DNA from: a virus
Lineage: Duplodnaviria; Caudoviricetes
IMG/VR virus record: IMGVR_UViG_3300034130_000053
Coordinates: 1-29,606 of that record
Reading direction: 5' to 3' (one strand)
Length of the DNA: 29,606 bases
A model generated the notes under the pieces. That model saw only the letters and a list, made by a program, of their open reading frames with translations, was not told the origin of the DNA and searched no databases. Shown here piece after piece: positions 1 through 29,606 of this stretch. Both the position numbers and the translations under genes were made by a program. The first letter of the stretch is position 1. Each line of letters opens with the position of its first letter.

Positions 1-424
1 CACTGTATAAGGTGTAGCCTAACATTGCTTCATTCCAATTAAGATTGGTTTTATCTTGAGTAACTGTAAACGTTTGGGTGCCGTCTATCGATTGTACTTG
101 AGCACCGATCGGTACTAAGCCTATATTATTTGGACTAGCCCGTGAGAATGTAACATTACCTGTTGCATATGTTGGTGCAAGCCGTAAAAACCCGAAATCA
201 ATACCGAAACTATCGACATCAGATCCAATTGAAGTAGCAAGCCGAGTAACAGCCAACAAATTAACTGCAATATTTTCTAATGTGATCAAATTATGTGCAC
301 TGGCTTCAGCAAACGCGAGTGCTACCGAATTCTCCGTGGTATCAGTGAGATTTGGATTAACTGATTGCATTGCTACAATGAAATTCTGTACAGCAGTGGA
401 GAAATCGATGACTGGCAATAACAT
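1..424 (-). CDS. Baseplate J/gp47-like wedge protein (N-terminal part, runs off window edge)
   Basis: Not in the ORF track. Read manually from ATG 424 with GGAA upstream: MLLPVIDFSTAVQNF...TRLATSIGSDVDSFGIDFGFLRLAPTYATGNVTFSR..., open to position 1. The 'LD..G..FG..R..A..ATG.VTF.R' pattern is typical of baseplate J, and it follows the gp25-like gene. Confidence 0.85.
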   Translation of the reverse strand, partial: MLLPVIDFSTAVQNFIVAMQSVNPNLTDTTENSVALAFAEASAHNLITLENIAVNLLAVTRLATSIGSDVDSFGIDFGFLRLAPTYATGNVTFSRASPNNIGLVPIGAQVQSIDGTQTFTVTQDKTNLNWNEAMLGYTLYS

Positions 425-433
425 TTGATATTC

Positions 434-793
434 CTAAATATATGGAACTGATAACACCGAAGTTATTCCAGATATATCTGTGTAAATTATTTGAACAATA
501 ACTGTTGTATCGGCTAATAGTGCTGGCGTAACTGTTATTGGACTTGATTGATCGACATATGATTCCTTCAACATTTGCCCCATAATCACTGCTTGAATGC
601 GTTGCAAATCAACTGGCATGAATATGTTCTGTCGTACACCAGCACCACGATCTAAATGATTGATATCATCGCCTGGATTGGTCAATAGATCTCTGAGGAC
701 CTTTTCTTGGCCTAAAGCGGTATTTGACGATAATGCGATATCACCTGTAATCGATAAGGTTAAATCTTCGCCATAGAGATGTTGGATATCCAT
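434..793 (-). CDS. Baseplate wedge / sheath-initiator protein (gp25/gpW-like)
   Basis: 119 aa between spike and baseplate J; 'LLTNPGD...H...GAG' motif typical of the gp25/W family. Confidence 0.75.
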   Translation of the reverse strand: MDIQHLYGEDLTLSITGDIALSSNTALGQEKVLRDLLTNPGDDINHLDRGAGVRQNIFMPVDLQRIQAVIMGQMLKESYVDQSSPITVTPALLADTTVIVQIIYTDISGITSVLSVPYI

Positions 794-806
794 GTTCGTA
801 TTTACA

Positions 807-1418
807 TTAAATTTGATCGTTGAGGCTAGTTGTGCCGGTTAATCCATTTCCTGTTGAAACCCCGCTATGTTGATGTCCGTCATAATTCGCTCGCAGTCGT
901 TCCAAAGATCCATGTTTATCACTGACATCTTGTTGGCCTATAATATTACCACTAACTGTCAGAATTCCATCGATATTGATATTAATCGCTTTGATATAGA
1001 TACTGCCATCTGATGCAAGACGGATAGTAGCACCATTCTTATTGACGAGAACTATCTCACCTTGTTGTGGAACTTGATTGGATCCAGCAATTGTATTGGG
1101 GGCTGATCCCATTGGGGTTTTGGTATTATGTTTGGTGCCAATTACAATGCCTGAATTATGATCACCTTGTAAATGTTCAACAATTACTTCGTCACCCATA
1201 TTAGGTGGCGACCATATTCCCCAGCCATTCGATGCTGCATGACTGGCAACAGGTAACCAACCACTCAATGTTCCATCTGGTTGCCATTGCACTTTAACGC
1301 AATTTGTGGCAGGATCGTAACTTGTAACTAATCCAGGTCGTAATGTTGGCCGTTGATTGATCACATCGATCATCCGTAAGGTAACTTGATCGATTATATC
1401 GTCGAATGAAAAATTCAT
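807..1418 (-). CDS. Baseplate spike protein (gpV/gp45-like)
   Basis: N-terminal OB-fold pattern (G.VTSYDP...VKV...SGWLP...P..GDEV.V), beta-helix-like middle, and C-terminal HxH iron-binding motif (GHQHSGV). Confidence 0.9.
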   Translation of the reverse strand: MNFSFDDIIDQVTLRMIDVINQRPTLRPGLVTSYDPATNCVKVQWQPDGTLSGWLPVASHAASNGWGIWSPPNMGDEVIVEHLQGDHNSGIVIGTKHNTKTPMGSAPNTIAGSNQVPQQGEIVLVNKNGATIRLASDGSIYIKAININIDGILTVSGNIIGQQDVSDKHGSLERLRANYDGHQHSGVSTGNGLTGTTSLNDQI

Positions 1419-2554
1419 CCGCTAACTGCACTTTCACCGGCTGAGGTATCCACAGAGTGGTTCTTCGCCGAAATAAACATTTCTAAGCCACCATCGATAC
1501 TAAAGGTTCTTGTTATTTTCTGAATATAATAGTTTTGATCAAAACTCGTGCCTGAGTTAATAACTTGGACCATATTACGTGGTGTCAATATATCCGAAAC
1601 ACCGGGTTCACGCCAATTAATCACTCGTTCGTTTTTACTGATTTCTAATGCAAGTGAATTTGCTCGTCTATTCAATTGATCTTGAGTCATATTGGGTGGG
1701 GCTTGTCGGGTATAGGTCTGACTGTTCTTACCAGCAGAAGAACCATAAGTCGCAGTCATTAATTTGCCATCATTACTATTCCAACTTTGGAGAATAACTT
1801 TCACATCTTTGGCTATAGACAAATTGCGCTCAAGATCGACATCTTTAACCGTATTGCCGTAATGATATGTTTGATTCTTTCGTTGAGCTGGCTTGTGTAG
1901 ATTGATAGTCCATGGTGTTGGATCTTGGAGAATTTGTTGTTTGAAATGGATCGTATTGCCTTTAACCCAAACATCATAACCTTCTTGTTGTGCAAGATAG
2001 GTTATCAATTGCCATTCAGTCGTTGATTTGGTGAATTCACCCGTAGCATTTTGACTTTGATTATGAGCATAATATGAACCAACTTTAGTAGTTGTTGGAT
2101 CAATATCAGATGTAATACCCGGATGTCCATTAGCCAATTGGCTAACTACTTCTGAACTAGTGAGATTCTGATACGTTTCGTTAATTTTGGTATCTAGGAA
2201 TAAACTGGTTTTATCACGGCCAGACAATATTACTGTGCCCTGAAACCATTTAACATTTATTCGATCGGTTTTGCCTAATAATATTGAACGAAACGCGTCT
2301 TTATTTGACCCTGTTACAATTGATAATTGAATATCGATATCCAATTCTTCGACATCGAAAAAACTAGGACCGAATTTCGGATCATCCCATAATGAAAATT
2401 CACACTCGAATTCATCTGCTTTATAATTGTTGGTACTCGTCATTGTTGCATGGATCAACCCAGGTATCACTGTTCCATTGGTCAACACTTGTAATCGTGG
2501 ATGTTTGACGAAACTTAACGGGGTAATTGAATTGAGACTAGACAAATATGCCAC
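1415..2554 (-). CDS. Baseplate hub protein (late control D / Mu gp44-like)
   Basis: 379 aa directly upstream of the spike gene; 'LSGRD', 'W..I..LA..EG..V...G.T.HF' and 'Y.I..ITRTFS...G' patterns. Confidence 0.8.
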   Translation of the reverse strand: MAYLSSLNSITPLSFVKHPRLQVLTNGTVIPGLIHATMTSTNNYKADEFECEFSLWDDPKFGPSFFDVEELDIDIQLSIVTGSNKDAFRSILLGKTDRINVKWFQGTVILSGRDKTSLFLDTKINETYQNLTSSEVVSQLANGHPGITSDIDPTTTKVGSYYAHNQSQNATGEFTKSTTEWQLITYLAQQEGYDVWVKGNTIHFKQQILQDPTPWTINLHKPAQRKNQTYHYGNTVKDVDLERNLSIAKDVKVILQSWNSNDGKLMTATYGSSAGKNSQTYTRQAPPNMTQDQLNRRANSLALEISKNERVINWREPGVSDILTPRNMVQVINSGTSFDQNYYIQKITRTFSIDGGLEMFISAKNHSVDTSAGESAVSG

Positions 2555-2723
2555 CAGTCAAACTACTATCAACGTCAGGAATAATGATTTGACCCATGCC
2601 TAATATTTTACTGTCGATCAAGCCATTTGCTTGTGAAATATAAATCCATAAAGTTGCATCACCGAGATAGGTTGCTGCCACTCGTTGGAGTAATGTACCT
2701 TCTACAACATTGATGATTTGCAT
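2538..2723 (-). CDS. Tail protein X-like / LysM-fold baseplate protein
   Basis: 61 aa with 'L..VA..YLGDA..W..I..ANGL.D....G...I.IP' pattern and canonical position before the hub. Confidence 0.8.
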   Translation of the reverse strand: MQIINVVEGTLLQRVAATYLGDATLWIYISQANGLIDSKILGMGQIIIPDVDSSLTGGIFV

Positions 2724-2724: not shown

Positions 2725-3594
2725 TTAATGTGACCCCTGAACTTGTAAATTAGCCTGCATAACTGTGAGATTATTACCTATTCGACTGGTGGTCGTTGCA
2801 TTACCGAATGCCTTGGTTAAGGTGCTAATAGCTGAGATTGCACTGCCACTACTTGTAATGGATGTGGCAATTTGTGTGATACCACCAATACTACCATTTG
2901 CCACAAGATTTAAGCCACCAACTATATTATTGGCGCTACCCACAGCCCCTAATATGCCCAATGCCCCTTTGCTACCCCCTGTGAGGTTTACCGCTTGTTG
3001 CACTAATGGGGTTATATTGCCAAGGACTGTTTGAACATTGGATAGAGCCGCTGGAATATCAACACCAAGAGCATTACTGAGACTATTGGTAATAGCACCA
3101 AGAAGTGAAGTTTTGGGTTTCGGTGGTGTTGATGGAATTACAAGACATTCCACGGTAAAATTGGTCATACCACCTTTAGCAGTATATTTGATATTTTTTA
3201 CAAACACGTCTCTATATTGATCTTGCCAAATCAATGGAACAATCACACCTTGAGTTCGGATTTGTTCTAATGCCGCACGTCGGGTTTGTTGATTGGAACC
3301 AAGGAAAATGCCACTGAATGATATATCGGTCGGATCAGGTCCGAGATCATCTATTTGTTTAGTACCACCCGGCATTTTATGTTCAACAATCTGATTTTGT
3401 GTGGTATATTCAATATTTTCTGGCACTTCGAAGTCAACGAATTTGAATTTACCCAAACTTAATACAGGTGGACCTGATAACAAATCAGACAAACTAGTCG
3501 TTGCATCTGCAAAACTTTGAAGTGAATTTACGTTGGCGAATTGATTACCAACCGATTGTATTCCACCAAAGTAATCTCCTATTGATCCACTCAT
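2725..3594 (-). CDS. Tail tube initiator / gpU-Mu gpN-like protein
   Basis: Follows the tape measure gene; 'FEVPE.I......H..PGG....D.LG.DP.DISFSG.F' pattern. Confidence 0.7.
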   Translation of the reverse strand: MSGSIGDYFGGIQSVGNQFANVNSLQSFADATTSLSDLLSGPPVLSLGKFKFVDFEVPENIEYTTQNQIVEHKMPGGTKQIDDLGPDPTDISFSGIFLGSNQQTRRAALEQIRTQGVIVPLIWQDQYRDVFVKNIKYTAKGGMTNFTVECLVIPSTPPKPKTSLLGAITNSLSNALGVDIPAALSNVQTVLGNITPLVQQAVNLTGGSKGALGILGAVGSANNIVGGLNLVANGSIGGITQIATSITSSGSAISAISTLTKAFGNATTTSRIGNNLTVMQANLQVQGSH

Positions 3595-3603
3595 ATTTTA
3601 TTC

Positions 3604-5490
3604 CTATGCCGTTACAAACCAAGGGGTCGGACCTAAACCACGATTACCCGGTGAGGATGGTCCACTTGCTGGACTGGTTGTTGAGCGATAATTGTAATAA
3701 TTGGTATTAGAGGCAATTTGTTTGCCATCTAATATAAGATTACTAGTCAATTGAATTGGTGTTTTAGTTGATGGTGGTGGTGTAATCCAACTCGATTTAT
3801 GGGCTAATGCTGGACCTTTAAATTCGGCATCACCTGGCATCGGTAAATTACCCGGTAACGTATGTTGTGGACCCATACTTCGTGGATCAACAGGTAGGGC
3901 ATTTTTCTGTGGACCACCAGTAGCTGGTTTCGGAAATAATTTATCCATATAATCGGAAAAAGTCACTGCTAATACCCCACCAGCAACCCATGGTGCTAAT
4001 GCAGCACTGAATGCAATGATACCGGTCGTCAATACGGTTAACCCGGTCGCTATACCAGTAAAAGTACTAAGGACCACACCAGCGACAATGAATCCACCCA
4101 ATCCTATAGCCAAGGCACTTAAGCCAGCTGCGACATTGAACAACATTTGTTGTTTTTCGGGTGGCATATTATTAATCCACTCGTTTAATTCATTCAACCA
4201 TTTGGTGAATTGTTGTAACCAAGGAATGGCCAATTTGATACCGGGTCCACCCAATGCAGTCATGAAATTATCCCACGCCTTATGGAAATTCTCTATATTA
4301 GCAGTAAGACTTTTATCGTTCTGTTCTTTGGCAATGTCTTCTACACCAGGGGTTCGACCGAAACGGATACGCTCATTATTGAGAACTGCCCAGTTGGCGT
4401 CAATCTCACTCATCATTCTGGCAGTAGTTGCTCTCGATGCTATTTGGAAAATATCTTGGATTACTTTCGTAACGGCTGTGTCATCTACAACACCGGTCTT
4501 TTTATTGCGATATTTGTTGCGCAATGCCTCCATCTTCTCGTGCATCCATTCAATAGGATGAGTAGCCATCCTTTCTTGATCAGGCACGGCGTCTTTATCC
4601 ATGATAATCTTACCACCCCTGCCGACACTCCATTTGCCAGGTGTCAACATATGGGCTTGTTCCATTGCTACTGCTGTTCGTTTGCCAGCTACAATATGAC
4701 CAACAAATTGTGAGAATGTTGACATCATAGCAGTGCCAGCTTTACTTGCGCCTAACGCATTCATAATAGCTGGCGCTAATCCCCACATTTCTTCGGTACT
4801 CATATTGCGTGCGGCAGGACCAGCTTGACTGACAAATGCCAATATTTTTTGTGGATCGATTAAACCTTCAGATGACACAATAGCTCGCACCATACTGTCA
4901 AATTCCTTATGGAATTCTTCAGGATTTACCTTGCCATCTTTTTGGATATGACCACGTAATTCTAATGCTTTGACGGCAATTTGTGCGAGGTCTTGTTGTT
5001 TGTCAGTATAACGACTTACTGCAATGGATCCTTGAGCTACTTCCTTCTGGACTTGTTCGACTTCTTTCATATCACCGAACACGCCATATAATTCACGTTT
5101 TTGTTTTACAATTTCATCTACAGCACTACCTGGCACCTGTCTGGCCAAGGCAAAAGCGTTCTTCTTTTCAACTTCCATTTCAGCATCAGTATAACGCCGT
5201 AATTCACCGGTCTTTTCATCTTTCTTCAATGCACCAATTTGGAGACGAACTAAGGCATCATTCAATTTCTCGGCTTTTTTGGTGGCATCAACAAGGAATT
5301 CAGCACCAGCAAATCCAATAGTACCGATTGCTGCACCAGCCAATAATGCAGCCATTCTTACTGTACCCAATCTATTAGCCAACGTATGCGCTTGATTATT
5401 GAGGCCAGTAAAATGTGCAGCTATAGCGCCTAATACCTGAGCGGCATTGCTGCTCATTGCGATATGCACGGCAATCCGCATAATGTCCAT
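3604..5490 (-). CDS. Tail tape measure protein
   Basis: Ala/Gly-rich helical protein of ~628 aa with hydrophobic segments, in canonical position. Start moved to ATG 5490, which forms a TAATG overlap with the upstream stop. Confidence 0.85.
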   Translation of the reverse strand: MDIMRIAVHIAMSSNAAQVLGAIAAHFTGLNNQAHTLANRLGTVRMAALLAGAAIGTIGFAGAEFLVDATKKAEKLNDALVRLQIGALKKDEKTGELRRYTDAEMEVEKKNAFALARQVPGSAVDEIVKQKRELYGVFGDMKEVEQVQKEVAQGSIAVSRYTDKQQDLAQIAVKALELRGHIQKDGKVNPEEFHKEFDSMVRAIVSSEGLIDPQKILAFVSQAGPAARNMSTEEMWGLAPAIMNALGASKAGTAMMSTFSQFVGHIVAGKRTAVAMEQAHMLTPGKWSVGRGGKIIMDKDAVPDQERMATHPIEWMHEKMEALRNKYRNKKTGVVDDTAVTKVIQDIFQIASRATTARMMSEIDANWAVLNNERIRFGRTPGVEDIAKEQNDKSLTANIENFHKAWDNFMTALGGPGIKLAIPWLQQFTKWLNELNEWINNMPPEKQQMLFNVAAGLSALAIGLGGFIVAGVVLSTFTGIATGLTVLTTGIIAFSAALAPWVAGGVLAVTFSDYMDKLFPKPATGGPQKNALPVDPRSMGPQHTLPGNLPMPGDAEFKGPALAHKSSWITPPPSTKTPIQLTSNLILDGKQIASNTNYYNYRSTTSPASGPSSPGNRGLGPTPWFVTA

Positions 5491-5933
5491 TAATAATTCT
5501 TTCCTAAAATACACACAACTGTTGAGCGGCCTAATTCATCTTTAATCAATTCAATATTATTGAAAACACTTCGTGCTAAAAATGATCTCGGTGGAATCTT
5601 CACAGTACCTAATTCCTGATATTCAGCTATCGGATCATCACTTCCTATTGCTAAATCATTTCCATCTATCATATATTTGATCGAGTCGCGCAATTCGCCC
5701 GTACGTAACAATGGACTTGGGGTTGGAAAACCTTTGGCTTCTTTATCGGCTATAGTTGCATCAGCTAACGGTGCCCATTCTGGCTGATAATCATTACTCG
5801 GTTGATATTCACCGAGATAACTTTTACTATCTTTAACCAATTTAATGCCGATATGATCCAATGCCTTATGATTATATTCATGCATCGCCGCGATTGCAGC
5901 AGTAAATCTGACAGCAGCACCAAGAAAATTCAT
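5490..5933 (-). CDS. HK97 gp10-like / virion morphogenesis (tail completion) protein
   Basis: 'W.PLA..TI..K......PLLRTGELRDSI.......IGS...A.YQE.GT..IPPRSFL' signature. Confidence 0.85.
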   Translation of the reverse strand: MNFLGAAVRFTAAIAAMHEYNHKALDHIGIKLVKDSKSYLGEYQPSNDYQPEWAPLADATIADKEAKGFPTPSPLLRTGELRDSIKYMIDGNDLAIGSDDPIAEYQELGTVKIPPRSFLARSVFNNIELIKDELGRSTVVCILGKNY

Positions 5934-6124
5934 TTACTTTTCCATCTCATAAGAGCCCAATCAAATTCATTACCTTCTAATTCACCGGCTATAATTGCAT
6001 ACGCATTAATTTCGAAATTATCCAACATAACATGTTCGGATTCAGGAATACCAAATGCAATTTTAAATGGCACACCATTTTTACAAAGTCCCACGGCGCA
6101 TCTGAACTCCGGGGACTTGGCTAG
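5930..6124 (-). CDS. Tail assembly chaperone, -1 frameshift extension (gpGT-like; 64 aa added to the 133-aa chaperone)
   Basis: The -1 frame after A AAA AAC (6130-6124) is open: LAKSPEFRCAVGLCKNGVPFKIAF...GELEGNEFDWALMRWKSK*. It fills the whole gap and ends in an ATGA overlap with the next gene. Confidence 0.85.
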   Translation of the reverse strand, partial: LAKSPEFRCAVGLCKNGVPFKIAFGIPESEHVMLDNFEINAYAIIAGELEGNEFDWALMRWKSK

Positions 6125-6130
6125 TTTTTT
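6086..6130 (-). promoter_or_regulatory. Programmed -1 ribosomal frameshift signal (slippery heptamer plus downstream hairpin)
   Basis: A-AAA-AAC at 6130-6124, 5-nt spacer, then stem AAGUCCC-CGG...CCG-U-GGGACUU (6118-6086). Confidence 0.85.
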
Positions 6131-6522
6131 AGTTGTTCTTTTGGATCAATTTCAGCTTCAACATCAATAATTTCACCGTCTTCATCTAATTTGACATCAG
6201 GTACCAATATCTTCATCAATGCAGTGGCACCATCATCACCTACCATACCGATTCTTCCATCGATTTCATTTATGTTTTTAGGAAATGGCAATGGAGCATT
6301 ATCAATGGATCTAATTGAAGCAACCAGACTGGCCAATGAATAGAATGATGAATTGCTAGCATGTTCGCCACATGCTCGCATCAATCTAGCACTTTCTAAT
6401 AATGATAATTTTCGATAAACTAATGTTCGACCGGTCGCATCGACAACCGTCTGATCATCAGATGTTATAATTGCCGCTTTTGGTTTCTTAACTATAGTTT
6501 CGGCTGTTGGCCTTAAAGCCAT
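6121..6522 (-). CDS. Tail assembly chaperone (gpG-like)
   Basis: 133 aa right after the tail tube gene, AGGAG RBS, ends on a slippery heptamer. Confidence 0.85.
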   Translation of the reverse strand: MALRPTAETIVKKPKAAIITSDDQTVVDATGRTLVYRKLSLLESARLMRACGEHASNSSFYSLASLVASIRSIDNAPLPFPKNINEIDGRIGMVGDDGATALMKILVPDVKLDEDGEIIDVEAEIDPKEQLKN

Positions 6523-6562
6523 AAAAAATCTCCTGTAAATAATCCATATTTAACAGGAGATT
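6523..6562 (-). promoter_or_regulatory. RBS-sequestering hairpin/terminator with an embedded TAAATA late-promoter core
   Basis: Minus strand reads AATCTCCTGT-TAAATA-TGGAT-TATTT-ACAGGAGATT-TTTT-ATG. The 3' arm contains the AGGAG RBS; TAAATA is at 6552-6547. Confidence 0.7.
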
Positions 6563-6567
6563 AAAGT

Positions 6568-7011
6568 TTAGATAGCGATGCGGCGATTAGCTACACCTTC
6601 TATCTTCCATTTGACTTCTTTATCACCAGCCCAAGATCCAGATTCCGTGTATTTGAATGCGACATTGGTATATTGGAAACTGCTGGTCGATCCATTGGGT
6701 TCAGTGATATACACATAAACACTTGACGTGTTATAGGTGCCATTCTGATACCATTGAGTCTCGAGATTGGCGAAGAAGTTATCCAAACTAGGTCCAGCTC
6801 TTACCCCTTCTATATCCACTGTCCAGCCTTTCGGCAATTCAGCATTCATTTGGGTTGAATCTAATTTATCGACTTTGATATTGGCTGTAACTTGTTTGGC
6901 ATCATGACCGGTGATATTATCCAGGGTAATTGGCTGACCATTTTGGTCTAAGGCAATTACTTGGATATCACGACCCACATTGAAAAAATTGTTTCCCGAT
7001 TGAGCAGGCAT
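6568..7011 (-). CDS. Tail tube protein
   Basis: 147 aa, beta-rich, directly after the sheath gene; AGGAG RBS. Confidence 0.8.
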   Translation of the reverse strand: MPAQSGNNFFNVGRDIQVIALDQNGQPITLDNITGHDAKQVTANIKVDKLDSTQMNAELPKGWTVDIEGVRAGPSLDNFFANLETQWYQNGTYNTSSVYVYITEPNGSTSSFQYTNVAFKYTESGSWAGDKEVKWKIEGVANRRIAI

Positions 7012-7053
7012 ACTAAACTCCTAAATTTCGGGTTTGTTACCCGCTGTTCTTAT

Positions 7054-8610
7054 TTACGCCGTTGTTGTAAGACTAATACCACTATTCGTTGCAAGAACTA
7101 CCGTTGTTCCACCTTGAACGTTGATAATAAATTTCTCATTAATCGCCTGATATACCACGGCAATATCAGCTTGCACATAACCAAGACTAGTTCTGGATTG
7201 TGGATTATTGCTATTGTCACACACTACAGTGAATGGCATCGATCCATCCGGTTGTAAACTTAATAGGTTTTGGCCAAGCAAATTACTGAGGAAATTAACC
7301 AACGTAGCTTTGATATTCTTGAACAATGCCGGCGTTACAACTTGAAATACATATTGACCCATACCAGCATTCAACGTACTGGCAATATAGTTAGTCATTC
7401 GGCTGTAATTCACGCCATTGATACTAGCATTACTGGAGGCGTTATGGCCAACTCGTGCAGCCCAAATAAAGCCAACTGGACTCGGTGTAGTAACAACCTC
7501 AAGACGTGCACCAATAATTGCGGTCAATTCCGCAGTGCTATAATAATTCAATTGTTGAGTACCCGGTGTACCCAATCTTTGTGAACCAACAATACCGAAT
7601 AATTGCTTGCCACCAGGACTTTGATTCGGTGCAAGATTTGCTACACGTGCAGCCATAAATGCTGATGGATTGACCAATCGTGTAACTTTGGTTACTGGAT
7701 CTGCCCAATAGAGATAATCACCAAATAACGGATAACTTGTCCAACTATCAACAGCAGCGGAACTGGTCATCGTCAATGCATTACTGACATTACCTGACAT
7801 CGGATAGGCATATATCGCAATCATCGCTTCGGTCTGCACAAATCCATCGATTGTCGTAAAATCCGATGCATTATCATCATCAACTACCACGAGAACACTA
7901 CATCCTTGTGCTCTGAGCGAATACATACCAGTTTTCGGAAAACCATCAACACCAATCAATGGAATTGCATTGGTTAATGTCGCACCGTCTGTTCCACCAG
8001 CCAACGTATAGGTGCCAGCACCTGGGGCAGTTATTCCAACCCCTGCCGTCGACAACACATAATTTGATGGACCTCTGAATGTATTGCCGTTATTAATAAC
8101 ATTGGCTTCGTTTATCCAATATGAATTGCCTGATCCGACGATATTATCAAATACTTCTGGTACTTGACCTGGTATACCGATAACCAATTTCCAACTATTT
8201 GCCTGAGTGCCTACAGAACGAGTAACAGTAACAAGATTGCCAAGAGAACCAGTGTAAAGAGCAGCATAGCTAATGCAAGTCGCAACACCAGTCGCTGTTG
8301 CCGACGCATCTGTTCCATCCGTGACTCTGACCATTCTTGCATCAGCAGCACCGTTCTGTGTCATAATTGCGAAATAGGTGCCAGCGTCATATTTGCGAGC
8401 AACCAATGGCCCGAAAGAGCTGACATATTGTGCGTAATTACCAACTACTGTTGGTGTATTTTTTGGTCCCCAGGTTGCAGTTCCAACTACACCGACACGA
8501 TTACTTGGCACACCGTTAAGGCTAAGCAATGCGGGTGGCACAATCTGGACATAAAGATCAGGAACAACGAGGGCCGTTGTATTAAGAGAGCCAGCTAATG
8601 AAATCGGCAT
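7054..8610 (-). CDS. Contractile tail sheath protein
   Basis: 'PDLYVQIV', 'GVVGTATWGP.NTP', 'VRVTDGTD', 'LAGGTDG' and C-terminal 'CD.SNNP......G...AD......I.EKFIIN' motifs. Confidence 0.93.
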   Translation of the reverse strand: MPISLAGSLNTTALVVPDLYVQIVPPALLSLNGVPSNRVGVVGTATWGPKNTPTVVGNYAQYVSSFGPLVARKYDAGTYFAIMTQNGAADARMVRVTDGTDASATATGVATCISYAALYTGSLGNLVTVTRSVGTQANSWKLVIGIPGQVPEVFDNIVGSGNSYWINEANVINNGNTFRGPSNYVLSTAGVGITAPGAGTYTLAGGTDGATLTNAIPLIGVDGFPKTGMYSLRAQGCSVLVVVDDDNASDFTTIDGFVQTEAMIAIYAYPMSGNVSNALTMTSSAAVDSWTSYPLFGDYLYWADPVTKVTRLVNPSAFMAARVANLAPNQSPGGKQLFGIVGSQRLGTPGTQQLNYYSTAELTAIIGARLEVVTTPSPVGFIWAARVGHNASSNASINGVNYSRMTNYIASTLNAGMGQYVFQVVTPALFKNIKATLVNFLSNLLGQNLLSLQPDGSMPFTVVCDNSNNPQSRTSLGYVQADIAVVYQAINEKFIINVQGGTTVVLATNSGISLTTTA

Positions 8611-8676
8611 AGGTTATATCCTTTAATATTGGAAAATCTTTAATATAATCATATTAAAGGTATCATTATTTAACTT

Positions 8677-9510
8677 TTAGGTTTGTCCGTATAAAGCAGT
8701 TTGTTGGATAAGTCCACCAATAAACAATACGGGTGGAAATGTTTCGAACAATGCAGATTGATATTCTAGTTCATAACGATCTGTTCTACGCCATAATAAT
8801 GTATTTTCAGGCACATCATCATAATGTGTATTCATATATTTTGGTTTACTCGTAGCCAATCCATCAGCCAATTGGAGAACTCGTAATGCATCAACCCCTT
8901 GTTTAATTGCAGAACCAAATACATTCCTGAGGAATGGATTAGGTGCGAACAGATTAATTGAAATTACCTGACATTGTCTGTCGAGATATTGGAACATTGT
9001 TGAATCTGTTCCTTGTTCATAATAATGTTCGGTATCAAATAACATAGGAGAAGGCAACGTGAGAACATTGGCATTTACCATCGATCCATTGATCAAAAGG
9101 CTTAATCGTTGTAATGCACTATTCAATGTATCAATATTAGATAGACGCACACTAAAGCCATGTCGATTGATAGCAATACCAAATACTTGGCCACTCGTTG
9201 GCGTTCCTGACATAGTTAAGGTATTACCTGATGTCGTGCCTTGAATTGTTTGTGGGGTAATTGAGAATAATTGCCACTTATATTGGAATGGTGATTCGAT
9301 TCGAACTATGTCTGTTGGATAAACGGATATATTGGTCACACCATTAAGCAGATCTTTATCCAAATCGGATGATGATGGCCAACCATTTGCTATCCTTACT
9401 GGATTACCATTATCAGCAGTCACCACATTACCTTGAATGTATGGACCTGTAATCAATACAGTCGCGATTGCTTGGGTTAATGCAGAAAGGACATCACTCA
9501 GATCAGACAT
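8677..9510 (-). CDS. Tail/sheath terminator (neck) protein
   Basis: 277 aa immediately upstream of the sheath gene; position-based call with a 'GWP....LD.DL..G...ISVYP' pattern. Confidence 0.6.
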   Translation of the reverse strand: MSDLSDVLSALTQAIATVLITGPYIQGNVVTADNGNPVRIANGWPSSSDLDKDLLNGVTNISVYPTDIVRIESPFQYKWQLFSITPQTIQGTTSGNTLTMSGTPTSGQVFGIAINRHGFSVRLSNIDTLNSALQRLSLLINGSMVNANVLTLPSPMLFDTEHYYEQGTDSTMFQYLDRQCQVISINLFAPNPFLRNVFGSAIKQGVDALRVLQLADGLATSKPKYMNTHYDDVPENTLLWRRTDRYELEYQSALFETFPPVLFIGGLIQQTALYGQT

Positions 9511-9512
9511 GA

Positions 9513-10567: not shown

Positions 10568-10581
10568 AATATTCTCCTAAT

Positions 10582-10609
10582 AAAAGTAAAGGGGTTTTCA
10601 CCCCTTTTT
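10582..10609 (-). terminator. Intrinsic terminator after the major capsid gene
   Basis: Minus strand AAAGGGGT-GAAA-ACCCCTTT followed by ACTTTT. Confidence 0.8.
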
Positions 10610-10612
10610 AGC

Positions 10613-12010: not shown

Positions 12011-12032
12011 GGGGGTTATCCTTTATAAAAAA

Positions 12033-17945: not shown

Positions 17946-17952
17946 TATTTAT
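17946..17952 (-). promoter_or_regulatory. T4-like late promoter core (ATAAATA) at the head of the late module
   Basis: Sits between an intrinsic terminator and terS. The TAAATA core recurs at 799, 6547, 7051, 8667, 12597, 15558, 18102, 20297, 22667 and 26161 (minus strand, left coordinates). Confidence 0.7.
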
Positions 17953-17993: not shown

Positions 17994-18114
17994 CTTATCC
18001 AAATCTCGTATGCGCTACGCAATCGGCCAGATTCTATACAAATTCGACATAAGGATATTTTAATGCAAGAAAGAACAAGAATGGCTAACCTGTTCTATAG
18101 TTATTTATGTTGGA

Positions 18115-20284: not shown

Positions 20285-20377
20285 AAGTGTGCTTTTTATT
20301 TAGCAGTTTCGTCTGGCTCCTCATTACCGGCCCAAATTTCTAACCAATGTTCTTGGATTATTTCAAAGTGTCAATAT

Positions 20378-21040: not shown

Positions 21041-21246
21041 GACCTGTAATCCGACCTGTAATCCAGGGTGTTTTTGACTCAACTTTATTCTAGTAATCAT
21101 TTTATTTTTTTCATACGATTGAGTGATTTTACCATATGAATTACAGAATGAGTCTGTTTTACTAGAGAAACTGCGGAAAATGACCTGTAATCCGACCTGT
21201 AATCCGTGGTTTAGACCTGTAATCCGTGGGGTATGGATTACAGGTC
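21041..21246. repeat. Iteron-type replication origin candidate
   Basis: GACCTGTAATCC direct at 21041, 21053, 21182, 21194 and 21214, inverted at 21235-21246. AT-rich spacer at ~21080-21120. Directly downstream of the helicase gene. Confidence 0.85.
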
Positions 21247-21255: not shown

Positions 21256-22593
21256 TTATTCGATATCAGGTCCAACGTATTTGGGTTGACCTAGTCCATT
21301 TCGATACATATAATCACCATCATTTTGATTAGTAGTGGTATCTCCGAGTTTTCTGAAATACCAGGGTTGATCGATGCGTTCTTCAATAATATTCAATCCG
21401 TTTGATTGAATGTAATCACGTGCTCCTTCGTAGAATTTTGGAAACATTATCGGATAAGCGTTATATTGTTTACAACATGCTTGATATGCATCAAACAATG
21501 TTCGCCGGCGTATATGGATAAAATTAGGATCATCAAATATTGCACGACATACACGTTCGTGCATCGGCTCTTGGATTTGAGACAGGCGACCATAATCTTG
21601 TCCGTGTAATGCCGTGGGGGGTGGACTATCACAATGTTTTAAGTAAAGATAGGTTATCCATTTACCAATTTCTTCTGGATTATTATACACGTTAGCCACT
21701 GCGTCTTGGCGAAATTTTACCGCCTCTGCTAACGTCGAAAAATTCATCAGTTGTTGGGTCCACGTGTCCAACGTTTTATTACGTGGATTCGCTATCACAC
21801 TAAACCGTCGGTCGGCATTCGACCTATCCAACCAAATACCGCCATTATAATCATTCGAACCAATAAACAGCAACAACATATTATCGACTTCATATTGGCG
21901 AATATTCTTTGGATTGATAGGCAGCCGTGGACTTCCTATCAATGTTTTCAATTTACCGGTATCAAGTTTATCTGCTTTGGATTCATTAAGCAATATAACC
22001 ACTTTACCTTCTAATAATGAATTAAAATCACCAATTAGCTCTTTAGGTGTAGCAGAAATGGTAGCATCGGCAAACATTGTTCTAAGCACCACGTCAACAA
22101 GGAGATTCTTACCAACACCCCCCTCGCCATGCAATACAATACATGGTAACTGATTATTCGACGGGTCCATATATTTGTGGATAATAACCTGTTCAATATG
22201 GTTGATATTTTCTTCTTTACCACCTCCAAGTGAATGCATTAAAATAGGAAATGCTGGATGACAATCACCCTCGCGCGCCTGCACCCACTTACTCATATCC
22301 ATTAAATTGAACATATCTTTTGGTAAATCAGGACGAACCGAGTAAGTTACATCAACATACATCCGCCCATTATCTTCCATATAGGCATACATTTGGGTTT
22401 TGAATTTGCTGTTCCATCCTACCTTTCTACTAAGCGCGGTTTCTGCCATAAATTTCCAGTCACCACCTTCAGACTTCCAGACATAGCGGTCTTGCACTCG
22501 GACATACCGCAAATCATGTTCATCAACATATTTCTGTGCTGCGGCTTCATAGTCCATTTCGTCATCATCATCATCATCAACTCGTTTTGCCAT
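21256..22593 (-). CDS. SF3/D5-type primase-associated helicase (DUF5906-like)
   Basis: Walker A GEGGVGKN, 'FNSLLEGK..ILLNE', 'LK.LI.......NPK....Y.VDN......SN' and arginine finger DRRF; GGAG RBS. Confidence 0.9.
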   Translation of the reverse strand: MAKRVDDDDDDEMDYEAAAQKYVDEHDLRYVRVQDRYVWKSEGGDWKFMAETALSRKVGWNSKFKTQMYAYMEDNGRMYVDVTYSVRPDLPKDMFNLMDMSKWVQAREGDCHPAFPILMHSLGGGKEENINHIEQVIIHKYMDPSNNQLPCIVLHGEGGVGKNLLVDVVLRTMFADATISATPKELIGDFNSLLEGKVVILLNESKADKLDTGKLKTLIGSPRLPINPKNIRQYEVDNMLLLFIGSNDYNGGIWLDRSNADRRFSVIANPRNKTLDTWTQQLMNFSTLAEAVKFRQDAVANVYNNPEEIGKWITYLYLKHCDSPPPTALHGQDYGRLSQIQEPMHERVCRAIFDDPNFIHIRRRTLFDAYQACCKQYNAYPIMFPKFYEGARDYIQSNGLNIIEERIDQPWYFRKLGDTTTNQNDGDYMYRNGLGQPKYVGPDIE

Positions 22594-22604: not shown

Positions 22605-23597
22605 CTAATGTTTTGTTGCAAATAATATTCTACTTCTAATCTTTTCCATCGGTGTCAATGTTTCAATATTTAAATCAGCCCAGCCAATCGCTTTTTCGGC
22701 TTCTTTTTCAATACCAATCCGTTCAAGATCGGGTTCCAATGACAATGACACATCCAATGCAGCGGCAGCCAAATCAACAGCGTCTAAAGCCCAACCATTG
22801 ATTTTATGGCGGGCTGCTGCTGCCGCCATCAACTTATAGAGGCGTTTGCCTTTGTCACTTGTGTTATAGGTGGTAATCATTTTTGTGGTAAAAATAGCTT
22901 TTTGTGTTTGATTGCCAAGTAATTGTGGCTTTAATGTCGGGGTCGACATAACTGGTTGTATAAGATGTTGTTGCAATTCGTCTATATTGATTGCGTTATT
23001 CTCACGAACAAAAAACACATTGTCAGCCCCCGCCCATTTTGCTGGTACGAACGACAATCTATTCTCATTTTTGGTCGCTTGATCGATATCCTGAGCGAAA
23101 TACGTAGTATTGAGATAATGCCACAAGCCGACATATTCAGTGGCCGTCATACAACGCGACGCCTTCATTATAATTCGCCAGCGTTGCATAGTTGGAATGG
23201 ATTTTGTTGTGGTATAAATGATGCTGGAAAATTCGCCAATTGAGTCATAGATTCGTTCGATGGACCAACCGGGCGAATCGAGATCGATGCAGATGAAATT
23301 AGCCATTGCGCCAATATTAAGTTTTAATTTTTTCGTTTCACCTGGTTTCAATATCATCGGTGAAATCCACGGGGTATTATTTTCTTTTTCGTAATTGGTC
23401 GGTAATCGTTCAATTTGGCCAAAAGCCCGTAACATGTCGATTAAATCTTGCCATGTCATCATAAGTGATTGTGCGGGTGCTTTGGTATTATCACCATAGC
23501 ACACCTGAAATGTGTGTTGATTTGACGTCGTCAAATCAACAGCCTGTGTGCCAACGAATGTTGGCGCCTCGGTGTCCATATGTAATGATTCCATCAT
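22605..23597 (-). CDS. AEP-superfamily primase/polymerase-like protein
   Basis: Catalytic-like CIDLD (DxD), 'IIYTT........RWRII', 'ID.A.....R..FVP'; directly upstream of the SF3 helicase. Confidence 0.75.
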   Translation of the reverse strand: MMESLHMDTEAPTFVGTQAVDLTTSNQHTFQVCYGDNTKAPAQSLMMTWQDLIDMLRAFGQIERLPTNYEKENNTPWISPMILKPGETKKLKLNIGAMANFICIDLDSPGWSIERIYDSIGEFSSIIYTTTKSIPTMQRWRIIMKASRCMTATEYVGLWHYLNTTYFAQDIDQATKNENRLSFVPAKWAGADNVFFVRENNAINIDELQQHLIQPVMSTPTLKPQLLGNQTQKAIFTTKMITTYNTSDKGKRLYKLMAAAAARHKINGWALDAVDLAAAALDVSLSLEPDLERIGIEKEAEKAIGWADLNIETLTPMEKIRSRILFATKH

Positions 23598-23756: not shown

Positions 23757-25109
23757 TTATTTTGTTTCACGCGGTGGCTCTGGTCTATCTTTCATCCACT
23801 TGCGTCTAGCGTCAACAACACTAGCCCGTCGCCGTGCAAAATCCTCGTCGCTTTCACCCTTATTCTTCTTGGTCGGTATATCAGGTTTAGACCCCATTTT
23901 ATCAACATAGACGTCACACGCTTTAACATAGGCATACCACGCTTCGCCGGTTCTATTTTTGTAGCCTTTTGATTTACCGCGGGCTTCTTCGCGAGCTGCA
24001 TCCATTTTTTTAGCCCGTATAGCCTCCTCGGCAGCGGCTTTAGCTTCTTCATGTGCTTTGGCATCACGCCAGTCATCGTTTTTGGTTTCGGTTTTGTTAC
24101 CAGAACCGTCACCTTCATCTTCACCCTGCCACGTGTAATCGGATCCGACCCCAGCCTTCTTGGGTCTGACATCATAAACCCATAAGTCCTCGCGCCATTC
24201 TCTTACCGGCTTAGGGGTCCAGCCGGGTGGTTTATCAATAAATCTGTTAGCCACTTTCAAAAACTGTTCAAGTGACGAGCATTCACCACGTTTTATAATT
24301 GCTAATTCGAATGTGCGAGGCGATGGATCTTTCAAAATATCCTTATGTTGCGCAAAAAATCGCAACACCTCGTTTACTTGTTGCGGTGTGACGTTTTTGT
24401 TTTCAAAATTAGGTCGCATTTCTTCGGTTGCAATATAACCAGCATAATGATACCGATCGTCTTTATTACCCCTAATGGATACGTAGTCTATTCCAACCCG
24501 ACTCATGATGCTTTGCATCATTGGATATCTTTTAAAGTCCGTACAAACGAGATTGGTTGAAATTACAATCCTGCCATAAAAATATAGGCCCATTTCATTA
24601 TCCAAGCCACGCATACTACGATGGCTAGGTATAAAACGATCTGCCGTATCAGAAGCTTTGTTTACAACTTCAAGACATGGCGTTGAACGAATGACGTTGT
24701 TGGCATCATCAAACAAAATACACGTGTTTTTATCGTTATTCATTATCAACTTTTCCCCGATGTTATTACCATTCGGGGTTTCGGATTTTACAGTCACGCC
24801 ATATGTTGGCAGAATTCGTTTGAAGAAATTGGACTTACCGATTCCATTATCACCTTCGATAATGAAAAGGTTTGAATTTATGCCTCGACGTGAAACTGGC
24901 ACTCGACGCGCAAATTGCACACCCAATATTTTAATCTGATCAAATTGCTTCCAATAATAATTTTGTTCTATATCAACAAACTTACCATCTGCTTTTTTGG
25001 GCGGACTCATTTTTACTAACCTTGTGTTACGACAACTGTCCCCGGGGACGCGAACCACGCCAAGCCACAACATTTCGGTGATAAACTCGCCGTAGCGGTT
25101 TTGTTTCAC
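23757..25109 (-). CDS. AAA+ ATPase with a charged C-terminal extension
   Basis: Walker A GDNGIGKS, Walker B CILFDD, sensor-1 IVISTN, 'SIMSRV' arginine-finger region, and 'SPR' sensor-2-like motif. Start position uncertain. Confidence 0.8.
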   Translation of the reverse strand: MKQNRYGEFITEMLWLGVVRVPGDSCRNTRLVKMSPPKKADGKFVDIEQNYYWKQFDQIKILGVQFARRVPVSRRGINSNLFIIEGDNGIGKSNFFKRILPTYGVTVKSETPNGNNIGEKLIMNNDKNTCILFDDANNVIRSTPCLEVVNKASDTADRFIPSHRSMRGLDNEMGLYFYGRIVISTNLVCTDFKRYPMMQSIMSRVGIDYVSIRGNKDDRYHYAGYIATEEMRPNFENKNVTPQQVNEVLRFFAQHKDILKDPSPRTFELAIIKRGECSSLEQFLKVANRFIDKPPGWTPKPVREWREDLWVYDVRPKKAGVGSDYTWQGEDEGDGSGNKTETKNDDWRDAKAHEEAKAAAEEAIRAKKMDAAREEARGKSKGYKNRTGEAWYAYVKACDVYVDKMGSKPDIPTKKNKGESDEDFARRRASVVDARRKWMKDRPEPPRETK

Positions 25110-25240: not shown

Positions 25241-26155
25241 TTAATTAAAAAGGCTAAACTTATGGATCTGTTCTTTCGGCACAAATATCTTATCAGCCCG
25301 ATTTAAGACATAACACCATTTGGTTCCACAGGGTTGAGGATTTCTGCCATGCGCCTGATGTCCTTTATCAAATACCACATAATCTTGATTGAGGAAGAAG
25401 TCATACATCTCGTCTGGATGAAAGCCTTTAAAATGACCCTTTAACATTTCTGCCATCACTACCGGACGACATCGTTTGATGGTATCCACTGCACCCAAGA
25501 CAACTTCAAATTCATGGCCTTCGACATCAATCTTGATGCCATCTACTAAACCAAGATTGAGACTATCGATTGTAATACCATCAACAGTAAATCGCATTCT
25601 TATGCCGTTCTTCTTAGGTCTAGCTGGAATATGCGAATTGATGACTCGCGCATTGATATAACTTTGATTTGGTGTGTCGTGGAATACTACAGGCCCAACA
25701 AAATCAAGAACAGCGACTTGATGTAACGTCACTTTGTCACTGACATCATTTAACACAAGATTATGGGCGCACATCTCGGCAATTTTAGGTACTGGTTCAA
25801 ATGCCAAGACTGTAGCACCCCATAATGCAAATTGATGGGCCATCAAACCAATATTGGCGCCGACATCCAAGATTACCCCGTTAGATCGATCAGCCAGACA
25901 TATTTTGAATGCCTGTAGATTGCCAGATTGATATGGTGATTTGGATAGTTTCAAATTCCGATGATACATCTGATTTTCGGTTTGCATCCACATCTTGGGA
26001 TTTTGTTTATTGGTGTGGATCGCAGACGCAGTCTGCGAAACACCCTGTATGGGCTTTGCCCATCCAGTCCAATCGAATTGATGCAACACCACTGGATCAG
26101 TAATAAGGGGCGGTTTGGTTTTGGCAACATTTAAATTTGGATAGCTTACTAACAT
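25241..26155 (-). CDS. FkbM-family SAM-dependent methyltransferase
   Basis: ILDVGANIG, AFEP and IKIDVEGHEFEVVLGA..TI...RPVV..E motifs. Start placed at ATG 26155, 5 nt after TAAATA. Confidence 0.9.
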   Translation of the reverse strand: MLVSYPNLNVAKTKPPLITDPVVLHQFDWTGWAKPIQGVSQTASAIHTNKQNPKMWMQTENQMYHRNLKLSKSPYQSGNLQAFKICLADRSNGVILDVGANIGLMAHQFALWGATVLAFEPVPKIAEMCAHNLVLNDVSDKVTLHQVAVLDFVGPVVFHDTPNQSYINARVINSHIPARPKKNGIRMRFTVDGITIDSLNLGLVDGIKIDVEGHEFEVVLGAVDTIKRCRPVVMAEMLKGHFKGFHPDEMYDFFLNQDYVVFDKGHQAHGRNPQPCGTKWCYVLNRADKIFVPKEQIHKFSLFN

Positions 26156-26233
26156 TGCCATATTTAACTGTAGCATAAAGCACAGGAATTCCAACCAGTG
26201 CGCCGTCAAAATGTGCCAAAAAGGCCGGATTTT

Positions 26234-28103: not shown

Positions 28104-28202
28104 TACCGACAAATCCTCGCTGCCAAAAACATCTTGCGCATTGTAATATCTCCTAAAATGCTACCCTGTAGCACGTCTAGCAAGGGGTCATAGCTATGAA
28201 AG

Positions 28203-28550
28203 CTATCTGCTATCACGTGCGTACATACGCTCAATGTGTTGCTTAAACGCCCGATGCATCACATCCATCGCGTTGTCCTCGGTTACTTCAACCGTGGCAT
28301 GATCGCATATTTGGGCTACACCACGCTTATGGGTTGTTGAATCCGTGAAGCCAAATACAACAACATTTGTCCATTTGTCGGCATTACCATATGCCGGTCC
28401 TTGGAGGATAATGGTTAGTTCACCCTCCAAAAGGTCTTTTTGTTCTTTAGCCGTAAAGCTATTAAACAACCAACCCCTCTTACCGACATAATTGCCCTTT
28501 TCGGTAAGGGGCTTGTTATTCTTGGTTTTGAACAATTTAAGCTGCGACAT
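28203..28550 (-). CDS. Hypothetical protein
   Basis: Start moved to ATG 28550 behind AAGGA; promoter at 28616-28585. Confidence 0.7.
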   Translation of the reverse strand: MSQLKLFKTKNNKPLTEKGNYVGKRGWLFNSFTAKEQKDLLEGELTIILQGPAYGNADKWTNVVVFGFTDSTTHKRGVAQICDHATVEVTEDNAMDVMHRAFKQHIERMYARDSR

Positions 28551-28580
28551 CTGCGTAATCCTTGTGCGTAGTTCCGATAA

Positions 28581-28688
28581 ACCCAACTTACGCTAGTTTT
28601 ATGGCTATGCAACCGCTAATGCCAAAACGGCGCGAATAAATACGAAACGAGCGGTTGTGTGCCATAAAATATATGCTATGTTGGGGTT
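28581..28688. promoter_or_regulatory. Divergent promoter pair forming an imperfect inverted repeat
   Basis: AGCGGTTG...GCCATAAAA...GTTGGG on both strands; plus-strand TAAATA at 28637-28642 lies between them. Confidence 0.6.
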
Positions 28689-28703
28689 ATAGGAGATACG
28701 CAC

Positions 28704-29606
28704 ATGACTAACTCACAAGATAATGATCCGACTGCATGGATGGCAAGTTTGATCAATGACATCCAAACTGCCCGTTGCACCTATCGTGATATAACGGGTG
28801 TGCGGTATATCAAACCCGAAAACGTCGACATCACTGCTCCGGTGTTTTGGTTTGATGACATGTTCGACCAAGGTTCCCCGATCATGCGCGGTATCGAAAC
28901 CGGCAATTCACTAGCCGATTTGTATCACGAAGACGCCAGACTATTGGTATTAAACAACGACTTTCGGTTGCCATTTCCTAAATGTTTTTTCGTTTATCGG
29001 TGTTGTGAAGTAAAACCGGAAATCCGTTTGCACAAGGTCGAGAATGGTCATCATATCGCCAATATCGTTTACCTTGATCAAGATCAAACAACATTTGACA
29101 TCGAATGCACCAGTTTTATGAAGATATTGACTGGATTCACTCAAATCAAAAATTGGTTGATATGTCCGTTAAAATGGAATTTCGGTTCACATTTGCCGAA
29201 AGGCGAAATCGAATATGTGGCACGCAGTCCACTTGCTGTGGACCCATTGCGTGAAAAAGCTATGATTATTGATTTAATCGCTGACTTGACTGCAATTATG
29301 GTCGGCACCATGTTGTTAAACGAGCCAAAAGCTACCAGTGCCATTAAACTGCCGTCTGGCCCAGTGCATAGTAAAGCCAATGCGCGACGCAGTAAAGCTG
29401 GTATCAAACCATTATCGGATGTAAGTTATATTCGTTTGCTTGATCCGGTACCATATCCAAGTAGTGGTAAAAACGCCATAGCGGCACGGGGTCCTATGCC
29501 GCCGCATAATCGTCGTGGTACCACACGGCATTATAAAAGCGGTAAAGTCGTAGCAGTTGGACCAATGAAGATACGGGGTGGTGCTCCAGACAATAGTACA
29601 CACGTG
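28704..29606 (+). CDS. Hypothetical phage protein with LPF and H.RRG..R...SGK motifs (runs off window edge)
   Basis: Not in the ORF track. AGGAG RBS, ATG 28704, open for 301 codons: MTNSQDNDPTAW...FRLPFPKCFF...PPHNRRGTTRHYKSGKVVAVGPMKIRGG... Confidence 0.85.
   Translation, partial: MTNSQDNDPTAWMASLINDIQTARCTYRDITGVRYIKPENVDITAPVFWFDDMFDQGSPIMRGIETGNSLADLYHEDARLLVLNNDFRLPFPKCFFVYRCCEVKPEIRLHKVENGHHIANIVYLDQDQTTFDIECTSFMKILTGFTQIKNWLICPLKWNFGSHLPKGEIEYVARSPLAVDPLREKAMIIDLIADLTAIMVGTMLLNEPKATSAIKLPSGPVHSKANARRSKAGIKPLSDVSYIRLLDPVPYPSSGKNAIAARGPMPPHNRRGTTRHYKSGKVVAVGPMKIRGGAPDNSTHV

Follow-up and report, generated by a model that had tools for sequence, protein, structure and literature searches.

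Gene Content of the Contig

The virus record IMGVR_UViG_3300034130_000053 is a linear viral contig of 29,606 bp with 40% GC, estimated by CheckV to be 58% complete, and its entire length constitutes the window analysed here. It combines a tailed-phage virion module with a replication cluster, and the hexamer TAAATA, a jumbo-phage promoter motif, recurs across both. On this basis we consider it probable, at roughly 0.65, that the contig belongs to a helper-dependent, virophage-like phage borrowing the gp55-like late sigma factor of a jumbo phage.

The first 17.9 kb (1-17.9 kb) form a head and contractile-tail module recognised with PHROGs and Pfam, all on the minus strand. From the left end, which falls within the baseplate J gene, the order is: baseplate genes (2..2723) for the truncated J-like wedge, a gp25-like protein, spike V, hub and a small LysM-like open reading frame (ORF), assigned by PHROG, Pfam and Raharianne matches; tail genes (2725..8610) for tail initiator, tape measure, neck protein, chaperones, tube and sheath, assigned by PHROGs and Raharianne matches, with the sheath at 7054-8610 (47% to Raharianne); and head genes (8677..12554), assigned by Pfam, PHROGs and Raharianne matches, including three head-tail connector-region genes, the major capsid protein (MCP; 10613-12010) and the scaffold (12033-12554). 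The portal (13961..15466; phrog_145, 44% to Raharianne), the terminase large subunit terL (15894-17165; Pfam, PHROGs) and, by position, the likely small subunit terS (17594-17914) follow. The first-pass annotation had described a compact head and tail module of temperate-myovirus type, and this description holds: 14 contig proteins match the Ralstonia phage Raharianne with 22-50% identity, and the sheath matches only six records of the phage collection, namely Raharianne-group Ralstonia phages and the Komagataeibacter phages phiKX1 and phiKX2 (47%). The element has virion proteins of its own, as expected for a satellite virus, and its tail genes extend from tape measure and tube to sheath and baseplate. 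No tail fibre, lysis or integrase genes are in view within the 29,606-bp contig.

The replication region (18.3-25.1 kb) contains, again on the minus strand, a sliding clamp (18340..19086, likely start 19053) of the jumbo-phage family phrog_12062 with a predicted PCNA/gp45 fold; a gp32-like single-stranded DNA-binding protein (SSB; 19157..20080) of the Rak2/Phosso jumbo family (phrog_1192, E 6e-52; 50% identity to Phosso); small ORFs; a stand-alone SF3 helicase (DUF5906; 21256..22593), which serves as the marker gene of the group described below; a primase-like gene (22605..23597); and a viral AAA ATPase with a charged tail (23757..25109; phrog_1250). The likely origin (21041..21246) lies directly downstream of the helicase and consists of five direct 12-nt iterons (21041-21232) and an inverted one (21235-21246) around an AT-rich spacer. 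Accessory genes then follow. The pairing of a gp32-like SSB with a gp45-like clamp, as well as the presence of primase, SF3 helicase and iteron origin, had been proposed from the first inspection and are all recovered here, with the qualification that the primase is only primase-like: it retains the DxD motif and has a replacement for the His that its counterpart in the relative G002 carries at the aligned motif, pairwise BLAST giving no support for homology between the two proteins. That His would have a catalytic role. The AAA ATPase has no match in the phage collection and no meaningful match in the PDB; it was considered as a gp44-type clamp loader and rejected, as it matches neither clamp-loader profiles nor RFC structures.

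One might object that such a combination is an artefact joining a temperate phage to a fragment of a jumbo phage, the more so for a metagenomic contig with a depth of only about 10x. In the likely source run, X1, two unitigs (3-11072 and 11109-29606) reproduce the contig with zero differences at a depth of ~10, and the junction between terminase and clamp lies inside the second one with even depth. Contigs from an independent lake run of a second study, X2, cover 27/30 and 30/30 bins, with the head-tail and the replication modules both represented, and derive from a close strain that is mostly 95-99% alike; moreover, TAAATA is distributed over both modules. An assembly chimera can therefore be practically discarded.

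TAAATA as a Putative Promoter in the Contig and in Jumbo Phages

Counting both strands, TAAATA is present at 17 sites in the contig, against 35.5 +/- 5.9 expected from shuffles, and is thus depleted overall; yet 10 of the 17 are sense-strand sites no more than 100 nt ahead of a gene start (binomial P 3e-8 with gene starts set by hand; rank 1 of the hexamers tested). With automatic ORF calls the motif again ranks first, among 4,043 hexamers, with Fisher P 1.7e-4 against its 14 anagrams. Scarcity within genes combined with concentration before them is the pattern that an active promoter would give. On the minus strand, boxes precede the gp25-like gene (799..804, 5 nt before the ATG, a leaderless spacing), a tail chaperone (6547..6552), the tube (7051..7056), the sheath (8667..8672), the scaffold-capsid unit (12597..12602), the portal (15558..15563) and terS (17946..17951, with a second box at 18102..18107, 193 nt before the gene). 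Genes that are not late have boxes as well: the SSB-clamp unit (20297..20302, 222 nt before the SSB), the helicase (22667..22672, 79 nt upstream and inside the primase gene), an FkbM-type methyltransferase (26161..26166) and, on the plus strand, a 301-amino-acid ORF (28637..28642). Some boxes sit 5 nt ahead of an ATG, and the fourth base past the box is A in 10/11 of the minus-strand sites. Most units, those for replication among them, would be preceded by a predicted helper late promoter, as in virophages.

The first-pass annotation had placed TAAATA before nearly every late unit, which agrees with these data except that terL, MCP, tape measure and hub have no box within 100 nt. It had also taken the boxes for late promoters of T4/jumbo-phage type, a view that we can narrow: the exact T4 8-mer TATAAATA occurs once, antisense within an ORF, indicating that the contig has the shorter form found in Rak2/Phosso jumbo phages. 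A scan for sigma70 promoters remained at chance level (47 vs 39.6 +/- 6.4).

Late promoters of T4 are reported to be read by RNA polymerase with gp55, aided by gp33 and the DNA-loaded clamp (PMC7892883). For jumbo phages, the paper on CBB describes ATAAATA ahead of structural genes in both CBB and GAP32, two phages with a gp55-like sigma, and reports no detectable gp33 or gp45 (PMC5259590). Applying the same upstream-enrichment ranking to regions of jumbo-phage genomes, TAAATA is first in two regions of the Sinorhizobium phage Phosso and in one of RaK2, fourth in one of Vibrio phage 2.275.O and 26th in one of PA5oct. In 68/73 jumbo-type loci a box lies no more than 260 nt ahead of the SSB, and the contig SSB has the upstream box of its jumbo homologues. 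Temperate controls of comparable composition (40-42% GC) rank TAAATA far lower (HP1 982, Aaphi23 1910, SuMu 1058), as do phages with the same virion (Raharianne 3897, phiKX1 467). Among 317 upstream windows of 80 sheath relatives plus Raharianne, phages that have 52-73% GC, a single one contains the motif.

Jumbo-Phage Affinity of SSB and Clamp

The SSB has 94 matches among phage records; 29 of the 30 listed belong to genomes of 345-469 kb, and the best is that of Phosso (50%). A tree of this protein, which the first-pass annotation had proposed to build, contains 30 rows and places the contig SSB in a supported set of 10 rows together with Phosso, on a very long branch (2.79) that leaves its exact position unsure. 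In the X2 strain the protein is 95% conserved. As to the clamp, a profile built from the contig protein matches the annotated clamp of Phosso with E 2e-98, both falling in phrog_12062. The AlphaFold 2 (AF2) model computed with 50 of 71 homologues has a pLDDT of 92.8, and Foldseek aligns it with PCNA (E 1e-11, TM 0.67), with concordant results from the ESM Atlas; the modelled structure of ~250 amino acids has the two-domain fold of gp45/PCNA-type clamps. From the single sequence the AF2 model reaches a pLDDT of only 32, the word index returns no homologue besides the clamp itself, and the clamp profile has no sequence match in the PDB.

A RaK2 clamp query detects the contig clamp at E 3e-4, which indicates that the six-frame searches with gp43 and gp55 presented below are usefully sensitive. 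The proteins RaK2 ORF102 (L191:33954-34697) and PA5oct gp170 (L192:21903-22649) match the contig clamp with E 3e-4 and 2e-7, respectively; they are annotated as hypothetical or structural, and their genes come directly after that of DNA polymerase. Judging from their sequences, they are likely to be the gp45 equivalent that escaped detection in the CBB paper.

Rak2-like phages, Phosso, PA5oct and Atu_ph07 thus represent the source family of the SSB, the clamp and the promoter motif. They encode late sigma, clamp loader and family-B DNA polymerase (PolB), whereas none of these was detected in the contig, and unlike the contig they have genomes of 280-490 kb and T4-like virions. The contig has no virion genes in common with them except for a distant terminase match. 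SSB, clamp, primase and helicase are found in 0/80 sheath loci, virion genes of contig type flank the SSB in 0/80 SSB loci, and direct locus searches with SSB and with terL returned no close relative among viral contigs.

Sigma Factor, Clamp Loader, and Polymerase Genes

The six reading frames of the contig gave no match to PolB (three jumbo gp43 queries and PF00136), PolA, a gp44-type loader, a gp55-type sigma or sigma70 region 2; gp33 and gp62 were likewise not found, in Pfam and PHROG scans of the 44 contig ORFs, the only searches that covered these two. The earlier statement that polymerase, gp44 and gp55 are missing from the 29.6 kb stands on the six-frame searches, and for gp33 and gp62 it extends as far as those ORF scans. 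Lack of gp33 says little in any case, given that it was undetected even in CBB. Phosso, the positive control, was detected for loader, gp55 and PolB. With T4-like virion, gp43, gp44 and gp55 all not found, the contig is not a fragment of a Rak2-like or T4-like phage. The profile searches included three relatives each time (G002, G405 and G406, introduced in the next section) and a fourth, G404, in the searches for HTH_3, phrog_12791, sigma70 and PolA, the fifth, G001, being in none of them; no HTH_3 match above the cut-off appeared in five records, the contig included, and no match to gp43 or to RaK2 gp55 in G001, G002, G404, G405 or G406.

Alternatively, the contig could be an autonomous chimeric phage with a fuller jumbo set (late sigma, clamp loader and perhaps polymerase), the missing genes belonging to the unseen portion. 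In favour of this view, the record is 58% complete and its right end continues, two jumbo replisome genes are already present, and a clamp without loader would be useless alone. However, the replication cluster has both its borders within the contig, the unseen part must also make room for fibre and lysis genes and for the remaining baseplate, and, as shown next, relatives that are complete or nearly so have the promoters without a detectable sigma. We regard this alternative as unlikely.

Phages Sharing the Helicase

The helicase family is small, with 27 matches; in a class-wide search of 401 genomes it was found in one, the contig itself. Locus searches yielded 11 distinct loci, five of which are phages with virion genes (G001, G002, G404, G405 and G406) that were retrieved whole and have virions unrelated to that of the contig. 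The same TAAATA signal is present in four of these five, with upstream-enrichment rank 1 in G404 and G405, 3 in G406 and 16 in G002, to be compared with rank 1 in the contig. These placements, together with the gene content and the jumbo affinity of SSB and clamp, constitute what is directly observed. A group of five further helicase-linked phages with unrelated virions, four of them with the same promoter signal, is new.

G002 is a provirus of 40.7 kb with 63% GC and a lambda-like tail, having 16 TAAATA on the gene strand vs 0 on the other, one of them before the primase; one of its genes matches 15 phage records, all of 284-490 kb, with 60% identity to Phosso. G404, a siphovirus provirus of 35.7 kb, has 19 vs 3 sites by strand, with the box 4-5 nt before an ATG in 10/22, and carries a Prim-Pol domain and an endolysin. 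G405 is a provirus estimated as 88% complete, HK97-like and with an integrase beside tRNA-Gln; its sites are 16 vs 2 by strand, and in 11/18 the box lies 4-5 nt before an ATG. G406 is complete and circular (36,203 bp with a 127-bp terminal repeat), has a Mu-like tail, an integrase and an endolysin, and contains a SegE-type GIY-YIG gene and a TnsA-like gene matching 16 jumbo loci. An integrase, which is absent from the contig as far as it is in view, is present in G405 and G406, and G002 and G404 are classed as provirus. No sigma, gp44-type loader or polymerase was detected in the complete G406, in the 88%-complete G405 or in G002. Iteron-type repeats occupy the same placement in G002, G406 and the locus L166.

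Could these phages be ordinary temperate or lytic ones that read TAAATA with a so far unrecognised activator of their own or with a host factor, the jumbo genes being incidental and a helper at most boosting growth? Many small ORFs are unassigned, the elements have their own primase and helicase (with a Prim-Pol domain in G404), endolysins are present in G404 and G406, and integrases in G405 and G406, all of which would suit an independent life. Yet outside their virion genes the relatives have little in common besides primase and helicase, so that no shared element-coded activator is visible, and no candidate activator is common to the elements. The motif tracks neither virion type nor GC: it is absent from 316/317 upstream windows of phages with the same virion as the contig, and among 61 capsid relatives of G002 all 31 with GC of at least 55% have 0-3 sense sites, to be compared with 10-14 when stretches of the same length are taken from G002, G405 and G407, and the 30 AT-richer ones have counts near the anagram means. 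In addition, jumbo genes were captured independently in the contig, G002 and G406. We therefore consider this explanation at least as unlikely as that of the autonomous chimera. The just mentioned G407 (L268-L269), found via the G405 capsid, has 15 main-strand sites vs 3 and a primase, with no helicase match; it is possibly a decaying prophage.

Some side observations on these loci deserve mention. A 113-amino-acid protein of G002 (L173:14490-14831) is conserved in Phosso, PA5oct, Atu_ph07 and SCTP-2, belongs to no PHROG and is a candidate co-factor. G002 and G404 have a serine recombinase between terS and terL (L172:8463-9149 and L184:7037-7714; 48% alike). L166, L167, L168, L170 and L171 are GC-rich primase-helicase-iteron cassettes with no virion genes in view, L166 having a TAAATA 128 nt before its primase; these five are possibly virion-less satellites of the same helpers. 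A candidate integrase of L166 (60-1421) was rejected, being a DNA methylase.

Proposed Helper Dependence

Primase, helicase, packaging and virion genes placed behind a box without sigma or recognisable repressor would most simply remain silent until the sigma of a jumbo phage arrives. The lone TAAATA box would not be readable by host RNA polymerase, so that no repressor would be needed, and the relatives would wait as integrated prophages. Once expressed, the helper sigma may fire all units together, with transcription starting ~4 nt past the box and often producing leaderless messages; the primase-like protein and the SF3 helicase would then open the iteron origin. With the helper's loader placing the captured clamp on DNA, clamp and SSB could tie contig DNA to the helper polymerase and to clamp-activated late transcription. 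The element would finally package itself into its own particles, and sigma, clamp loader and nucleotides would be resources contested between it and the helper.

The earlier annotation had postulated borrowing of both late transcription and DNA synthesis, and the two parts fare differently. Borrowed transcription finds good, though indirect, support in the jumbo motif and in relatives with no detected sigma, including the complete G406. For replication, the clamp needs a loader that is not seen in the contig, and this alone points to the replisome of the helper; the case for borrowed DNA synthesis is weaker, because many small phages lack a polymerase, Raharianne has no annotated one and G404 has its own Prim-Pol. 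Dependence on the helper's polymerase is hence the weakest step of the proposal. Regarding the helper, which had been guessed to be T4-related or Rak2-like, the sequences make the Phosso/PA5oct/Rak2 kind likely and argue against T4-like Straboviridae. The host would lie, as a guess from Phosso, phiKX, L171 and P0143, among Alphaproteobacteria.

A variant would keep helper-dependent transcription while turning SSB and clamp into decoys that poison the helper replisome. The strong divergence of both proteins from jumbo homologues and the fact that the relatives manage without them would fit; conversely, both are full length, the clamp has a confidently predicted fold and the second strain shows 95% conservation of the SSB, which renders this variant quite improbable.

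Several points weigh against helper dependence as a whole. About 40% of the contig's genome is unseen, and the X1 unitig extends 2,644 nt beyond its right end; sigma, loader and polymerase, ~5 kb together, would fit in the unseen part. The phrog_12791 search, one of those for gp55-type sigma, ran without a positive control of its own, and an activator that escaped recognition could be encoded by one of the several ORFs still unassigned in G406 and G405. The five relatives all lack SSB and clamp, and both proteins are distant from any sampled jumbo phage, the clamp being at most ~30% identical over its full length. The promoter signal is also uneven: it is not clear in G001 (62% complete, rank 183) and L166 (rank 213), L167, L168 and L170 have no TAAATA, L171 lacks a sense-strand copy ahead of its primase, and the tested region of PA5oct is not significant (P 0.2). 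The other six helicase loci have no virion genes in view and mostly lack the motif, and in a quick version of the helicase tree the contig is nearer to these six than to G002 and G404-G406, so that it is not sister to the TAAATA-bearing phages.

Comparison with Virophages and Satellites

In Mavirus and Sputnik, a late promoter of the helper precedes most genes, the capsid is self-encoded and the integrated form is silent until a giant virus infects (PMC6723459). The contig resembles them in having its own capsid and a predicted helper late promoter before most genes. It differs in its bacterial host and tailed HK97-type particle, so that no homology is implied, and its dependence is one that we infer. 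Lavidaviridae have a double jelly-roll capsid and eukaryotic hosts; the contig, having tailed-phage capsid, portal, terminase and sheath, does not belong to that family.

Among bacterial systems, P4 has late promoters that respond to the Ogr protein of P2. The primase/helicase, iteron origin and integrase of our group recall P4, PICI, cf-PICI and PLE elements, which in contrast borrow virion parts, whereas the contig and its relatives encode the whole virion, tail genes included. PLE activation is reported to follow the transcription programme of its helper (PMC13595925). MiniFlayer, MulchRoom, Ando and Aci01-2-Phanie are described as satellite phages that have their own capsid and packaging genes and require a large virulent helper, and the Streptomyces systems have a low GC matching that of the helper (PMC10690885, PMC13587820). 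MulchRoom and Ando are reported to take helper tails, and all four satellites to be without key replication genes; the contig and its relatives, unlike these, combine a complete contractile or long tail with an origin, a helicase and a primase-like gene. The word promoter is absent from the main text of the MiniFlayer paper. The I55 island is a satellite of the jumbo phage JPTI55 (PMC12772148); differently from the contig it is reported to lack genes for virion and replication and to be packaged in the helper capsid. Raharianne and phiKX1/2 share the head-tail module with the contig at 22-50% identity. Raharianne relies on an initiator plus DnaB for replication, without an SSB or clamp of contig type, and neither it nor phiKX1 has the motif signal; the contig, in turn, was found to lack Raharianne-type initiator-DnaB replication and host-type regulation. 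In the literature searched, with most subscription papers and supplements (e.g., the CBB promoter tables S6-S7) outside, small phages that are fully tailed and have jumbo late promoters are not described.

In evolutionary terms, we would give somewhat better than an even chance to a broader proposal: the contig may belong to a so far unrecognised class of bacterial provirophages, polyphyletic in origin and made up of myo- and siphoviruses of 30-50 kb with complete virions, in which the jumbo TAAATA promoter has replaced repressor and late-activator circuits, leaving repressor-free tripwires in chromosomes that a late sigma of Rak2/Phosso/PA5oct-like phages would switch on. The contig would go furthest among them with its captured SSB and clamp, which would connect it to the helper's replisome and to clamp-activated transcription. 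Known bacterial satellites mostly take virion parts, so that an element building the whole particle while stealing the sigma would, if confirmed, be the bacterial counterpart of Mavirus. Elements of this kind would look like ordinary or defective prophages to annotation pipelines and induction assays, would explain some repressor-less prophages that never induce, and would provide their hosts with an inducible defence against jumbo phages. Strand-biased TAAATA combined with a helicase of contig type would provide a simple genomic signature for finding more.

Accessory Genes and Minor Features

The FkbM-type methyltransferase (25241..26209, minus strand) has its likely start at 26155, 5 nt past a TAAATA, and FkbM homologues are present in 7/80 jumbo-type SSB loci. 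A low-depth contig of 118 nt in X1 matches 26089-26169, from the 5' end of this gene through the TAAATA box, and then diverges; another genome in the X1 sample may share the promoter-gene unit. The 301-amino-acid ORF (28704..29606, plus strand), of unassigned family and open at the contig end, has its box 67 nt upstream; pairwise BLAST does not support homology with a G002 counterpart. Strong hairpins are located upstream of the primase (23627-23660), between the TAAATA box and the start of the SSB (20230-20284) and at 27.0 kb, in the gap where two genes converge (27042-27080).

The X2 strain differs from the contig in a few discrete places. A 38-nt repeat with an 8-bp hairpin lies inside the FkbM gene (26014-26051) and inside a DUF4236 gene (27520-27557); X2-strain contigs skip 26012-26067 and parts of 27520-27646, which suggests a tiny palindromic insertion element within coding genes. 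A 36-nt direct repeat (13008-13043 and 13322-13357) flanks small ORFs in a region (12987-13502) that the X2 strain has swapped for 48 other letters. At the end of the adaptor gene (10190-10230), the same strain has 661 other letters replacing 39, possibly an inserted gene.

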